Shown here one piece after another: positions 1 to 64,000 of a stretch of 64,000 bases of DNA; within the stretch, counting starts at the first letter, position 1, and every line of letters starts with the position of its first letter. The stretch comes from a virus (lineage: Duplodnaviria > Heunggongvirae > Uroviricota > Caudoviricetes): IMG/VR virus record IMGVR_UViG_2913177423_000001, positions 19,415 to 83,414 of that record; one strand, written 5' to 3'. A model generated the notes under the pieces. The model saw only the letters and a program-made list of their open reading frames with translations. It had not been told where the DNA came from and searched no databases. The position numbers and the translations under genes were made by a program.

Positions 1-43
1 AATCGATACCGTTAAACCGACAGAATCTTACCTTGAAGAAATT

Positions 44-424
44 TTGCCGCAGGCGCTCAATGGCAGGAGTGAAGACGAGTTCCTGACAGTATATCTTGCT
101 GGGATGGTTGAAAGGCTAAAGAAAGATCCACAGCTTTATCACCTTTATGGTCCGTGGTGGCCTGCGCTTAAAACGATATTGCTGGAGCGCGGCGACACAT
201 CATTTGGACAGGTTGTAGATAGCGATGTGGCAGAGATCTACAGAATGAGTCGCCCGGCGCTTACGGTTTTAGCCGGGCATCTGTATTCGAGCGAGCGCCT
301 GGAAAATGACGCGGTATACAATCCAGTTCATGCTCTGGAAGTTGCACCTTATGCTGATGATACAGAGCCATACGTATACACTAGTTACGACGAGTCTATA
401 GAGAAATATCGAATTATGGGGTAG
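44..424 (+). CDS. hypothetical protein (ORF open to window start; true 5-prime end may lie upstream)
   Basis: 126-codon ORF from TTG with no in-frame stop back to position 2; next ORF starts 3 nt after its stop. Confidence 0.4.
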   Translation: MPQALNGRSEDEFLTVYLAGMVERLKKDPQLYHLYGPWWPALKTILLERGDTSFGQVVDSDVAEIYRMSRPALTVLAGHLYSSERLENDAVYNPVHALEVAPYADDTEPYVYTSYDESIEKYRIMG

Positions 425-426
425 TC

Positions 427-687
427 ATGCGAAAGAACCGTCGGTTTACGCTCGAAGACCTAAAGGAATATTCCATATCGAAGGGGTATGTCCTTGAGTT
501 CCACCGTTACAAGAAGGTTTTTACGCTGCGAAAAGCAGAAAAACCAGCGAGCTGGAGCTGGGTATACTTCCCTCATACAGAAGACAAACTGGTAGAGCTT
601 GTTGACGATTTGACCTATGAAGGTTGGCTAATCGCAATCGACAAGACAATCACAGAAATATCCGAACCGGATAAAATAAATCTTTAA
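427..687 (+). CDS. hypothetical protein (86 aa)
   Basis: ATG ORF packed 3 nt after upstream stop, operon-like spacing. Confidence 0.45.
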   Translation: MRKNRRFTLEDLKEYSISKGYVLEFHRYKKVFTLRKAEKPASWSWVYFPHTEDKLVELVDDLTYEGWLIAIDKTITEISEPDKINL

Positions 688-858
688 AAATAACAGGTTG
701 GGTAAATGCCATGCGATTTACCCGCCTTGTTGATTAAGGTCACTCTTTACTCTAAAAGCAAATCCGACCTGTTGCATATAGCCCAGCCTTGAGTAGTATC
801 TCTCTTGTTTTACAAATCTAACGTAGTTGTTATTATTTCGCTTATTTACTATCAATGG

Positions 859-877
859 GTGTGTTAGAAAAATAGCG
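859..877 (+). promoter_or_regulatory. copy of recurrent operator-like motif (GGTGTGTTAGAAAAATAG)
   Basis: matches core TGTTAGAAAA shared by about 15 intergenic sites in the window. Confidence 0.4.
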
Positions 878-1021
878 CGAAAAAGAAGGCGTCGCAGTGA
901 ATATTCTGAAACATCCCCACATGCCGCAGCTCTCAGAGAACTGGAGAAAAACCCAGATCTAATCAAAAGGAACCATGAGCATTACGAGCAGGTTCGCGTC
1001 CTGGACTGGTTGTATCGCAAT

Positions 1022-61368: not shown

Positions 61369-61378
61369 TGAGGCTGAA

Positions 61379-62224
61379 ATGAAAGAGAATTGGTTTAAGG
61401 AGCGGTTAACTAAAGCAAAACAGGATTCTAAGCTCTGGAGCGCCTTCATAGGCGCTTTACAGGACGTCTGGGATGAAGCTGTAGAACCGATATTAACCAG
61501 AATAAGTAACAGAAAATCATTCTTCACGATGGCAAGTGAAGATATGGATACTCGTATCGCGGAATACGGGCGCTTTTTCGTTATTACCGAAAAAGATAAG
61601 ACCCGTAGACCAATGCTTCTGGCCCAACGTTTAGATGAAGTGCATTTTAAAGGAACTCTCCGCCCGATTGAGCAGACGTTCTGGCGTGAATTCGGCACAA
61701 TCCCTGTAACATGGGAGCCTCTTTACGCCCCCGTAGATTTAGAAAAGCATCCCTATGGTTCGTATTTTGCTACAGCAATTGAGATACCTACAGCGCAGGC
61801 CCAATTTGGAGAATTCTTTCTAACATCACGAGGGCTGGTTGTTGTTGATCAGAATAAGCTCTATCGCTCATATGGCGAGTATAATAAAGGTACGGCAGTA
61901 CAGAAATTATTAGCAGATTTTGAAACAGTAATCGCGCCTTTGTTACCGCTGCATATTGTTTTTGATGGAGTGTCCTTCCAGCTTAGTGCTGTATTCCCTG
62001 AAGTGGCAGAAATACTAAATTGCTTGTCTACGGACGTTTCGGTAATTGAAGGTGTTTATGTTACTGATAGTATGACTGATATGCTATCCCGTAGTGATAA
62101 CTCCTGCCAGGTAGACAATATTTCGCTTGATGCTATTCCGAACAGAACGGCAGAAAAGCAACTACATCTTGATATAATCCCACTAGATGCCTGGCCTTTA
62201 GATTACCACCTTCAGCCTGTTTGA
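61379..62224 (+). CDS. baseplate/tail-fiber attachment protein candidate
   Basis: 281-aa ORF in baseplate-fiber block. Confidence 0.45.
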   Translation: MKENWFKERLTKAKQDSKLWSAFIGALQDVWDEAVEPILTRISNRKSFFTMASEDMDTRIAEYGRFFVITEKDKTRRPMLLAQRLDEVHFKGTLRPIEQTFWREFGTIPVTWEPLYAPVDLEKHPYGSYFATAIEIPTAQAQFGEFFLTSRGLVVVDQNKLYRSYGEYNKGTAVQKLLADFETVIAPLLPLHIVFDGVSFQLSAVFPEVAEILNCLSTDVSVIEGVYVTDSMTDMLSRSDNSCQVDNISLDAIPNRTAEKQLHLDIIPLDAWPLDYHLQPV

Positions 62225-62320
62225 TAATTCTTCCCCCGGGCGTGCGGGGGAAGAACAACGGAAATCACAAACTGAGCATACTCTCCTTCGGTTCATTGCT
62301 TATGAAGGGGCTATGTTCGT

Positions 62321-62767
62321 ATGGCAGAAAATTTAAAGGCAAGAGATGGCAATAGCCTGTATAAGGCACAATTGCTTTCCTACTACTATTCACGCCGTGC
62401 CGAATCAGCGATCGGTAAAGGTGCGCGTTTCGTTATCTCTAAGGCGTATTGGTGCAAATCTGGACTGGTAACTGCAAATGGTGCTGGTGGCTGGAATATT
62501 GCTGACATTCCACTCGATTTTAAATTGAGTGACGCTCAACAGTTTGCTGCTTCCGATCTGATATTGTCCAGTGTGGATGGAATTATCACTATCAATGCTG
62601 CCTTCCCTCAAGAAAGAATGCCGGATAACACGCCCTATGACTTTAACACGCTTGTGCTTGTTGATGCTGAAGATCAGGCTTTTGGCGTGCTTTGTACCCA
62701 ACAGGATACTCTCTACAAAGGTAAGCGTTACAGCATTCTCATGACAATCGAGCAAGTTGAGGGATGA
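62321..62767 (+). CDS. hypothetical protein preceding tail fiber gene
   Basis: 148 aa; stop overlaps tail fiber start. Confidence 0.45.
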   Translation: MAENLKARDGNSLYKAQLLSYYYSRRAESAIGKGARFVISKAYWCKSGLVTANGAGGWNIADIPLDFKLSDAQQFAASDLILSSVDGIITINAAFPQERMPDNTPYDFNTLVLVDAEDQAFGVLCTQQDTLYKGKRYSILMTIEQVEG

Positions 62768-62769
62768 TT

Positions 62770-64000
62770 ATGGGAGCTGATAAAACGAAAAGCATAATGA
62801 CACTATCTTCACGTGTCACGCAGCCACTGCTTGCTGATGTTCAATATTTCGAACTGTATAGTAGTTCGGCTCTTAACAGGAAGTTAAAAAATATTGTTTT
62901 GCCAGGTTTTTACTGCGGATTTGAACCAGTTCCCGGCACAGGATTGAGTGTCCGTATTACTTCTGAAAATTCAGATGGTAAGGGTGCTGCTTCAGTAGAT
63001 GTAAATAATGTTCAGATATCCGTTCAACAAATAGAAGATGTGATTGTTCCGGTAAAGGCCGGGGCTACGAACATTATTGTGCTGGAAGCTAATTTTGAAC
63101 ATGGTGTAAAAACTACCCAGGTAGATATCACATCTTCTGTCAGTGCTGCCAGAATATACGCTCGCACGGACAACACTATCGGGCAGAATCAAATTGAATT
63201 ATGTCGAGTTGTCGTGCCTAGCGGTGCTACAGCCGTGACTAAAGAAATGATTGTGCTTAAATACCGCGTCAATCGTGCTGTTGGCGTTGAGTTCTCTAAT
63301 GAAATAAGCAGTACAGAAGAGAGAAAAGCGGCTACTCCCCTGGCTGTCAAAACCCTCCATGATTTGGTTGATACAAAAGCCCCGATCGACAGCCCGAATC
63401 TGACAGGGACGCCAACTTCGCCTACACCAGAACCTGGTACAAACAACACACAGATCGCAAATGCGGCCTTTGTCTATGCGGCTATAAATGCGCTGATCAA
63501 TGGCGCACCAGGGACTCTGGATACACTGAAAGAAATTGCGTCCGCCATCAACAACGATCCGAAGTTCAGTGAAACTATTAATAAAGCACTGGCTCTTAAA
63601 GCACCTTTGGCAAGTCCTGCATTAACGGGAATCCCTACTGCGCCTACCGCTGCACAGGGAACAAATAATACTCAGATCGCTACGACTGCTTACGTACGGG
63701 CTGCTATATCTGCATTGGTCGGCTCATCACCAGAAGCTCTTGATACCCTGAATGAGCTTGCAGCAGCACTTGGCAATGACCCGAACTTTGCGACAACAAT
63801 GACAAATGCGCTGGCAGGCAAACAGCCCCTTGACGCAACTTTAACCGCACTTGCGGGGCTTGCAACTGGCGCAAATAAATTGCCGTACTTTACAGGTAAA
63901 GATACTGTTGCCCAGACTGATTTAACTTCAGTCGGTCGCGATATCCTGGCTAAAACAAGTGTCCTTGCTGTTATCCAATACCTTGGTTTAAGAGAACTCG
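62770..64000 (+). CDS. tail fiber protein, N-terminal part (3-prime truncated by window end)
   Basis: repeated SPxLTGxPT(A/S)PT..GTNNTQIA(N/T)(A/T)A(F/Y)V modules and KLPYFTGKDTVAQTDLTSVGRDILAK; frame open to last base; not in ORF track. Confidence 0.75.
   Translation, partial: MGADKTKSIMTLSSRVTQPLLADVQYFELYSSSALNRKLKNIVLPGFYCGFEPVPGTGLSVRITSENSDGKGAASVDVNNVQISVQQIEDVIVPVKAGATNIIVLEANFEHGVKTTQVDITSSVSAARIYARTDNTIGQNQIELCRVVVPSGATAVTKEMIVLKYRVNRAVGVEFSNEISSTEERKAATPLAVKTLHDLVDTKAPIDSPNLTGTPTSPTPEPGTNNTQIANAAFVYAAINALINGAPGTLDTLKEIASAINNDPKFSETINKALALKAPLASPALTGIPTAPTAAQGTNNTQIATTAYVRAAISALVGSSPEALDTLNELAAALGNDPNFATTMTNALAGKQPLDATLTALAGLATGANKLPYFTGKDTVAQTDLTSVGRDILAKTSVLAVIQYLGLREL

Follow-up and report, generated by a model that had tools for sequence, protein, structure and literature searches.

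The window, the whole 64-kb stretch of DNA analysed here, contains a single block in which an lpa-like late-promoter activator gene (7635-8027, +), the packaging genes pacA (8024-9388, +) and pacB (9388-10896, +), the gene for a C1-type lysogeny repressor (immC; 10922-11959, -), a recombination site (12161-12192) and a recombinase gene (12345-13373, +) have the order and orientation of P1 (tblastn), as the original prediction had proposed. The activator matches Pfam BPP1_LPA (PF25716, E 7e-55) and shares 97% amino acid identity with its D6 counterpart and 31% with that of P1; PacB shares 97% and 56%, respectively, and both packaging enzymes, PacA being located by tblastn, fall into PHROGs terminase families. 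A cluster of five GATC sites inside pacA (8339-8475) has a conserved counterpart in D6 and sits about as deep in the gene as the P1 pac site does, from which we infer a candidate pac region. The repressor is 89% identical to D6 C1 and 20% to P1 C1; an identical protein has a precomputed Pfam assignment to PF27008 (Phage_P7_repressor_C1), and the NCBIfam phage_rep_C1 match is weak, under the cut-off. No match to lxc was found in the window (tblastn).

The recombination site, TAACTTTAGATAAT-TGGC-ATTATTTAAAGTTA, is a 14-4-14 inverted repeat that agrees with D6 rox at 31 of 32 bases, the single mismatch being an A-to-G substitution in one arm. No loxP-like site was found in the window in a search allowing three mismatches. 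The adjacent tyrosine recombinase shares 89.5% amino acid identity with D6 Dre and 42% with Cre, and keeps R175, H290, R293, W316 and Y325 (residue list from PMC4777119). Judged by sequence, the recombination pair is Dre/rox, not Cre/loxP.

An operon 3' of the recombinase (13448-17321, +; assigned using PHROGs, Pfam and tblastn, among other evidence) encodes orf117, orf116, a dUTPase, a Tad2-like/DUF2829 protein, an isaA-like protein and, translationally coupled to the latter, a 364-residue paralogue of the PacB N-terminal (ATPase) domain (16227-17321, +). In this paralogue neither the Walker A GKS nor the Walker B DE motif is conserved, and where PacB has its nuclease domain it carries a conserved C-terminal tail of its own; D6 has phd/doc/pdcA in place of the paralogue. 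PHROGs puts it in phrog_5902, whose function is not annotated there, and no Pfam, NCBIfam or PADLOC match was obtained. Its AlphaFold model averages a pLDDT of 57 and stays below 50 over the last 170 residues. A tentative and rather unlikely reading is that it acts as an inactive terminase mimic, regulating the element's own packaging or hindering that of competing P1-like or D6-like phages sharing its cell. If true, its packaging role would be an unstudied function in a subset of both the P1 and D6 lineages.

Displaced loci and immunity regions

The predicted displacement of humD/hot was evident: humD (17360-17749, -; 89% amino acid identity to P1) and hot (17848-18099, -; 91%) lie beyond the recombinase on its far side and are inverted relative to P1, with a perfect LexA box at 17768-17787. 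Together with plp, they are 87-91% identical to P1 (tblastn). The gene ref (26169-26747, +; 84% amino acid identity to D6, 50% to P1), likewise expected to have moved, is 13 kb from the recombinase, which it adjoins in P1.

For the immI-like locus, also thought to be displaced, the outcome was mixed: the locus is present at 27295-28680 (+; Rfam gathering-score hits, tblastn and Pfam), but as an extra, divergent copy and not a moved one. It comprises an isrK-like RNA (27295-27374, +; Rfam), a C4 antisense RNA (27398-27485, +; Rfam RF01695, 73.7 bits, above the gathering score), icd (27539-27751, +; tblastn) and a Rha-type antirepressor gene (27754-28680, +; tblastn and Pfam). Upstream of the window, the same contig carries a C4 and a1b1 locus nearly identical to that of P1, followed by icd and ant. 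The contig thus has two c4/icd antirepressor loci, one in the window and one upstream, and two such loci are known from D6-like genomes (PMC6799933).

Plasmid functions, late genes and cargo

A plasmid replicon occupies 53491-54827 (-), with iterons of core TGAGGGCAAATnTTACAC on both sides of a Rep_3 initiator gene (53787-54575, -; Pfam Rep3_N and Rep3_C; 278.7 bits against NCBIfam RepE, below its cut-off of 342). The partition region (40741-43272, -; 85-99.7% amino acid identity to D6) contains orf61 and, by Pfam, a small ParA-like ATPase (41019-41651, -), ParR/StbB (41941-42285, -) and ParM/StbA (42292-43272, -). The initiator is 99.6% identical to D6 orf42, and the partition proteins reach 99.7%; on the strength of these matches, both replication (Rep_3 and iterons) and partition (ParM/ParR) are D6-type. 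No match to P1 parA, parB or repA was found in the window (tblastn), consistent with the expectation that partition and accessory content would differ from P1.

At the left end, homologues of ulx (cut by the window start), orf13, pmgM, orf11, pmgR and pmgS (1-3152, +) share 80-99% amino acid identity with D6 and 22-57% with P1. A tRNA and cargo region follows (4398-6102, +; ARAGORN, Rfam, Pfam and tblastn; 88-89% identical to P1 by blastn), with tRNA-Arg(TCT) (4398-4474, +), tRNA-Thr(TGT) (4479-4554, +), a plp-like gene (4542-4883, -), a crAss001_48-family protein gene (4973-5386, +) and a tRNA(CAT) (6027-6102, +); tciA/tciB of D6 and P1 are missing from it (tblastn). Homologues of D6 orf6, with a Tad2-like domain, and orf5 lie at 6559-7526 (+; tblastn and Pfam). 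Variable early-gene cargo (18121-25922, -; Pfam and PHROGs), including Ead/Ea22-like, ASCH-like and DUF551-like genes, is common to D6 only in part, with gaps in the blastn alignment.

Beyond the second immI-like locus are pmgF (+), orf80 (+), a simB-like gene (29576-30451, -) whose N-terminal half is replaced relative to D6, and mat (30691-31386, +), together spanning 28740-31386 (tblastn). The tail and baseplate genes 26, 25, 7, 24, 6 and 5 (31716-38067, +; tblastn and Pfam) are interrupted between genes 25 and 7 by an orf73-like ORF (33268-34017, -), an HTH protein gene (34067-34426, -) and a HigB-like toxin gene (34430-34789, -). The HigB/HTH pair matches the PADLOC PD-Lambda-2 A profile and, over its N-terminal part only, the B profile, and PADLOC found no complete defence system in the window.

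Next come hrdC (RdgC family) and two DNA methyltransferase genes (38127-40594, +). After these, at the junction 40617-40740, 123 bp stand in place of about 2 kb of D6 (blastn); glnS, which falls in this gap, has no match in the window (tblastn). A role in maintaining D6-like elements has been discussed for glnS and for phd/doc, and both are absent here. At least 13 public D6-like plasmids (PLSDB) have the same glnS-less junction, which makes glnS variable cargo and not a defining gene; in 2019 every D6-like genome had been reported to carry it (PMC6799933).

The span 43514-53405 (+; tblastn) holds upfC, upfB, orf55, orf54, gene 23 (major capsid), orf50, an Ig-domain protein gene and then gene 22 (sheath), gene 21, pmgG, bplB, pmgC and tub, with orf53 and orf52 inside it on the minus strand (45284-46149). 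The right end (54930-64000, +; tblastn) carries pmgB, sit, pmgA, bplA, gene 16, R and the constant part of the tail-fibre gene S, and closes with a cixR site (63974-63993) identical at 20 of 20 positions to cixR of P1 and D6.

Two classes of candidate regulatory site recur across this map. A 17-bp sequence approximating ATTAATTTTCTAACACA occurs at 13 sites in the window against 0.5 expected: upstream of lpa, c1, hrdC and gene 23, beside rox, flanking ref, and around pmgM and pmgS. Most of these sites recur at corresponding places in D6, and they occupy the same relative places as the C1 operators of P1. Their position and enrichment suggest that this is probably the operator bound by the D6-type C1. 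The P1 operator consensus has no match in the window and is absent from D6, against 17 matches in P1 itself. A candidate late promoter, AAATCACA(A/C)-N6-(-10), was found at five sites, which all precede late operons and lie on the coding strand; because the pattern was defined from the very sites counted, the shuffle statistic for it is inflated. These sites recur in D6, which has one further site outside the region covered by the window, and the P1 late-promoter pattern gave just three loose matches in the window. The mapped candidate operator and promoter positions are directly testable.

Relation to D6 and P1

The claim that the element is a P1 relative of the D6-like phage-plasmid type turned on extended similarity to the reference genomes, and blastn and tblastn against P1 and D6 bore it out. 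The alignment to D6 covers 85% of the window (54,558/64,000 bases, mean identity 88.5%), far above chance. Genes shared with D6 number 81 and form one collinear block in one orientation (tblastn of D6 proteins); 68 of them are full length without a stop codon, with a median amino acid identity of 94%. P1, by comparison, aligns at the DNA level to 8% of the window (blastn), in the tRNA/plp region, humD-hot and the constant part of gene S, plus short pieces in pacB, gene 25, hrdC and dmt, and its 43 shared genes have a median protein identity of 45% and are scattered over 14 synteny blocks (tblastn). Extended collinearity with D6, combined with rearranged, protein-level similarity to P1, identifies a D6-like phage-plasmid, a P1 relative with other replication, partition and accessory modules. 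The rearrangements originally noted are real relative to P1 but are not specific to this element: they are the standard D6 layout, and comparison with D6 shows none. The gene-order differences from P1 would be ancestral to the D6 lineage, with this element departing from D6 by cargo replacement only.

The 43 genes in common with P1, the lpa-pacA-pacB-c1-recombinase block in P1 order, the close P1 identity of humD, hot and plp and the shared cixR might instead indicate a P1-type (Punavirus) phage-plasmid outside the D6 lineage in which a few modules were swapped. We regard this as scarcely credible given the disparity in DNA coverage and median protein identity and the lack, in the window, of loxP, a P1-type C1 operator and any RepA, ParA or ParB match. 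Genus-level similarity within Punavirus corresponds to about 70% of the genome, against the 8% of the window that aligns to P1. Punavirus identity is accordingly refuted by alignment coverage, tblastn, and the operator and loxP searches.

The window is the final 64 kb of GenBank contig RHJQ01000032.1 (83.4 kb), which stops 7 nt past cixR and is collinear with D6 for a further 10 kb upstream of the window. Because the sequence comes from a contig of a draft assembly, a chromosomally integrated D6-like prophage or an assembly chimera might be considered in place of a free plasmid. This is very unlikely: neither the window nor the 10 kb upstream of it contains a chromosomal gene, virion genes share the contig with a complete set of replication and partition genes, gene order is unbroken relative to D6, and a contig end at cixR is what an assembler break at an invertible repeat would produce.

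We also consider it unlikely that the element is a defective D6-like plasmid that kept its plasmid functions and lost phage formation. Truncated, p75-type defective variants are known in Salmonella (PMC6799933), phd/doc, ppp and pdcB are missing here, and the window does not reach the portal (prt), protease (pro) and lysis (lyd) genes, the dar operon, cin, repL or the invertible segment. Against this, every D6 morphogenesis gene covered by the window is full length without a stop codon, and the contig is D6-collinear upstream and approximates the 91 kb of D6 minus its invertible segment of about 4 kb. The window very probably represents about 70% of a temperate myovirus genome from the D6 lineage, the sister group of the P1-like phages, kept as a low-copy plasmid.

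Proposed lifestyle and comparison with known phage-plasmids

Gene and site content was observed directly, and functions were assigned by homology to P1 and D6. On this basis, lysogeny would be held by the D6-type C1 repressor, with the icd-ant operon presumably restrained by C4 antisense RNA. The plasmid would be copied by the Rep_3 initiator acting with the iterons and segregated by ParM/ParR, while Dre acting at rox would resolve dimers and circularise incoming DNA; the HigB-like toxin pair may penalise plasmid loss. After induction, the Lpa homologue is predicted to turn on the late operons, probably through the AAATCACA(A/C)-N6-(-10) promoters, and PacA/PacB would package DNA by a headful mechanism starting at the putative pac site within pacA.

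The identification is correct but ordinary, as this is a new D6-like element of an already described group; D6-like plasmid prophages have been reported before (PMC6799933; bioRxiv 10.1101/2025.09.12.675607). It means little beyond correct annotation, in that an unannotated draft-genome contig is assigned to the D6 phage-plasmid group and adds one more example of glnS and phd/doc as dispensable cargo there. Phage-plasmids of this group are tracked because of DNA transduction and occasional resistance or virulence genes.

With P1 (NC_005856, Punavirus), the element has in common the virion gene set as far as the window covers it, the predicted lifestyle, the lpa-pacA-pacB-c1-site-recombinase block, the C4/icd/ant immunity locus, humD under presumed LexA control, a predicted tail-fibre switch of the Cin/cix type and a putative pac site within pacA. 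P1 has Cre/loxP in place of Dre/rox, a different operator sequence, and RepA and ParABS where this element has Rep_3 and ParMR at other positions. Nor was a match found in the window to P1 res, lxc, ban, sim A/C or phd/doc (tblastn; P1 query set without mod).

Gene order is identical throughout to that of Escherichia phage D6 (MF356679 / NC_050154; Gilcrease & Casjens 2018, as cited in PMC6799933), including the Rep_3 replicon between tub and pmgB, and both have Dre/rox, the D6-type C1, ParM/ParR and the second immI locus and lack lxc. D6 carries glnS, phd/doc/pdcA, tciA/tciB, an orf70/71 toxin-antitoxin pair, ppp and pdcB, which are absent here, whereas the PacB N-terminal paralogue, the HigB-like toxin, the crAss001_48-family protein, tRNA-Arg(TCT) and other early genes are absent from D6. 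Coverage multiplied by identity comes to about 75% in the window comparison, so the element does not belong to D6's species under the usual 95% rule. No full-length match at 95% or above was found among phages, PLSDB plasmids or complete E. coli genomes (three annotated collections). Some 70 PLSDB plasmids share the greater part of the window between 25 and 50 kb; the closest D6-like plasmids, such as E. coli pTB423 (NZ_CP034790.1) and NZ_LT906557.1, are 92-94% identical over 83-92% of the window and carry the PacB paralogue too, but differ in the 18-24 kb cargo.

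Collinearity with D6 and rearrangement relative to P1

Aligned by blastn with the full genome of Escherichia phage D6 (MF356679/NC_050154), 54,558 of the 64,000 bases of the window (85%) matched at a mean identity of 88.5%, in a single orientation and a single order throughout: window 1–12070 corresponds to D6 12235–116 and, past the D6 origin, window 12177–64000 corresponds to D6 91159–36397. Against the full genome of Escherichia phage P1 (NC_005856), just 5,162 bases (8%) could be aligned. By tblastn, 81 annotated D6 proteins had matches (68 full length without a stop codon; median identity 94%), compared with 43 annotated P1 proteins (median identity 45%). 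When the window was cut into three pieces and compared with the INPHARED phage collection, D6 was the top match for all three (coverage 44%, 88% and 100%; identity 89–90%). The nearest records are plasmids of E. coli, Shigella and Salmonella, at 92–94% identity. Block analysis split the genes common to P1 into 14 blocks but recovered one collinear run against D6, the apparent extra D6 blocks being icd/ant paralogue cross-hits and one weak match.

As in P1, lpa (7635–8027), pacA (8024–9388), pacB (9388–10896), c1 (10922–11959, minus strand) and the recombinase gene (12345–13373) follow one another in conserved order and orientation. Together with the collinear D6 alignment, this block confirms the P1-type synteny and D6-like identity of the original prediction, and supports its interpretation of the element as a P1 relative with exchanged modules. 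Displacements relative to P1 are likewise real: humD and hot are inverted and lie on the far side of the recombinase gene, ref lies 13 kb away from that gene, and an immI-like locus, pmgF and a simB-like gene separate ref from mat. However, they are not specific to the element. All of these displacements (humD/hot, ref and mat) are present in the annotated D6 arrangement, so the rearrangements belong to the lineage. A perfect LexA box (TACTGTATATATAAACAGTA) precedes humD at 17768–17787, and P1 also has a LexA box upstream of humD.

The C1 protein of the window has an exact match in NCBI assembly GCA_004211995.1, on contig RHJQ01000032.1 (83,414 nt); stretches retrieved from this contig agree with the window at 100% identity and put it at 19415–83414, the final 64 kb. 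The contig, and the window with it, ends 7 nt past cixR (63974–64000 from the start of cixR to the window end), and this cixR is identical to that of P1 and D6. Here the assembly breaks at the inverted repeats of the Cin-invertible segment for the tail fibre, so that the U genes and the variable part of gene S are missing. In the 10 kb before the window, icd, ant, a CHAP-type lysin gene, darB and ulx follow in D6 order; from position arithmetic, the contig should start near cin and cixL.

Replication, partition and recombination modules

No similarity to P1 RepA, ParA or ParB was found in the window by tblastn. A Rep_3 initiator (53787–54575; Pfam Rep3_N and Rep3_C), 99.6% identical to D6 orf42, is instead encoded between tub and pmgB, with iterons (core TGAGGGCAAATnTTACAC) on either side. 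Partition differs from that of P1, as predicted, with ParM/StbA and ParR/StbB (41941–43272) and a small ParA-like ATPase (41019–41651) recognized by Pfam.

Between c1 and the recombinase gene lies a 14-4-14 inverted repeat (12161–12192) that has 31 of its 32 positions in common with D6 rox, and no loxP-like sequence occurred in the window at up to three mismatches. The recombinase shares 89.5% identity with D6 Dre and 42% with Cre, and retains R175, H290, R293, W316 and Y325, the residues listed for Dre (PMC4777119).

Immunity loci and candidate regulatory sites

A C4 antisense RNA was detected by Rfam at 27398–27485 (73.7 bits; gathering score, 45), with an isrK-like RNA immediately upstream (whole pair 27295–27485) and icd followed by a Rha-type antirepressor gene downstream. 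This immI-like locus is a second copy with a divergent C4. The other, on the same contig ~9.3 kb before the window start (positions 91–296 of the upstream stretch L008), has C4 and a1b1 targets near-identical to those of P1, followed by icd and ant, which suggests that its C4 specificity is shared with P1. Two such immI loci have been noted before in D6-like plasmids (PMC6799933).

The P1 C1 operator consensus, searched at up to three mismatches, had no match in the window or in D6, compared with 17 in P1. A different motif, ATTAATTTTCTAACACA, was enriched ~25-fold, its 12-bp core having 13 matches at no more than one mismatch against 0.5 expected. The sites span 862–46176 (for example, 7545, 11976, 12154, 26091, 26746, 38084 and 38102). 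They lie upstream of lpa, c1 and gene 23, next to rox, directly past the recombinase gene, either side of ref, around pmgM and pmgS and, as two inverted copies, ahead of hrdC. Several of these places match the P1 operators Olpa, Oref, Omat, Odmt and OpmgR, and the majority of the sites recur at equivalent positions in D6. From this enrichment, placement and recurrence, we infer that ATTAATTTTCTAACACA is a candidate D6-type C1 operator.

The pattern AAATCACA(A/C)-N6-(-10 hexamer) occurred five times, always on the coding (plus) strand, at 30576, 34817, 46238, 54871 and 62262, where it precedes late operons at mat, gene 7, gene 23, pmgB and R, respectively; because it was built from the very sites counted, its shuffle statistic overstates significance. 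These sites were found again in D6, with one extra upstream of ddrB. The pattern differs from the P1 box, AAGTGACTT, and is a candidate D6-lineage Lpa-dependent late promoter. Five GATC sites clustered inside pacA (8339–8475), conserved in D6 and about as deep in the gene as the P1 pac site, form a candidate pac site.

Cargo, tRNA genes and position within the D6-like group

Accessory content differs from P1, as predicted, and cargo differs from D6 too. By tblastn with D6 proteins, tciA/tciB, phd/doc/pdcA, the orf70/71 toxin–antitoxin pair, glnS, ppp, pdcB and several small early genes were absent from the window. In their place are a crAss001_48-family protein, a HigB-like toxin and a PacB paralogue, all described below, and a set of Ead/Ea22-type early genes unlike that of D6, identified by Pfam and PHROGs. 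Two proteins with Tad2-like (Thoeris anti-defence 2) domains (6559–7134 and 14771–15457) and a crAss001_48-family protein (4973–5386; precomputed label 'Sequestin') are possible anti-defence cargo. On the minus strand between tail genes 25 and 7 (33268–34789), a HigB-like toxin gene (34430–34789) adjoins a gene for an orf72-like HTH protein; in D6, a toxin–antitoxin pair of another kind, orf70/71, lies directly upstream of this HTH gene. Of the PADLOC PD-Lambda-2 profiles, the HigB-like/HTH pair matches A and, in its N-terminal part (first 119 positions), B. The ORF that follows, of 249 aa and 38% identical to D6 orf73, has no match.

An isaA-like gene and a paralogue of the PacB N-terminal (ATPase) domain (together 15464–17321) overlap by 11 nt at the isaA-like stop. 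The paralogue (16227–17321; 364 aa) shares 37% identity with PacB of the same element over residues 9–261 and belongs to PHROG 5902, a family of unknown function. The five aligned family members do not conserve the Walker A GKS and Walker B DE of PacB, and all have a strongly conserved private C-terminal tail of ~100 residues in place of the nuclease domain; the structure model is confident for residues 10–190 only, not the tail. P1-like phage MH422554.1 has the same gene pair, adjoining ssb. P1 and D6 themselves lack the paralogue, and D6 has phd/doc at its position.

The first tRNA gene (4398–4474) has the acceptor and T arms common to P1 and D6 tRNA-Asn, with its anticodon arm rebuilt to TCT (Arg, reading AGA), and looks like an identity switch at a conserved locus, where a related phage has tRNA-Tyr annotated. 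In the D6 record NC_050154, tRNA-Thr and tRNA-Asn are annotated on the plus strand (7700–7850). Since they match the P1 and window tRNAs in reverse complement only, the strand given in that record is probably wrong.

At the glnS position, a 123-bp junction (40617–40740) replaces ~2 kb of D6. At least 13 E. coli and Shigella plasmids in PLSDB have the same glnS-less junction. The presence of glnS in all D6-like genomes, as stated in 2019 (PMC6799933), therefore no longer holds, and lacking the gene does not make the element unusual. The element adds one more member to this already described group (PMC6799933; bioRxiv 10.1101/2025.09.12.675607), and the finding itself holds no surprise for a specialist.
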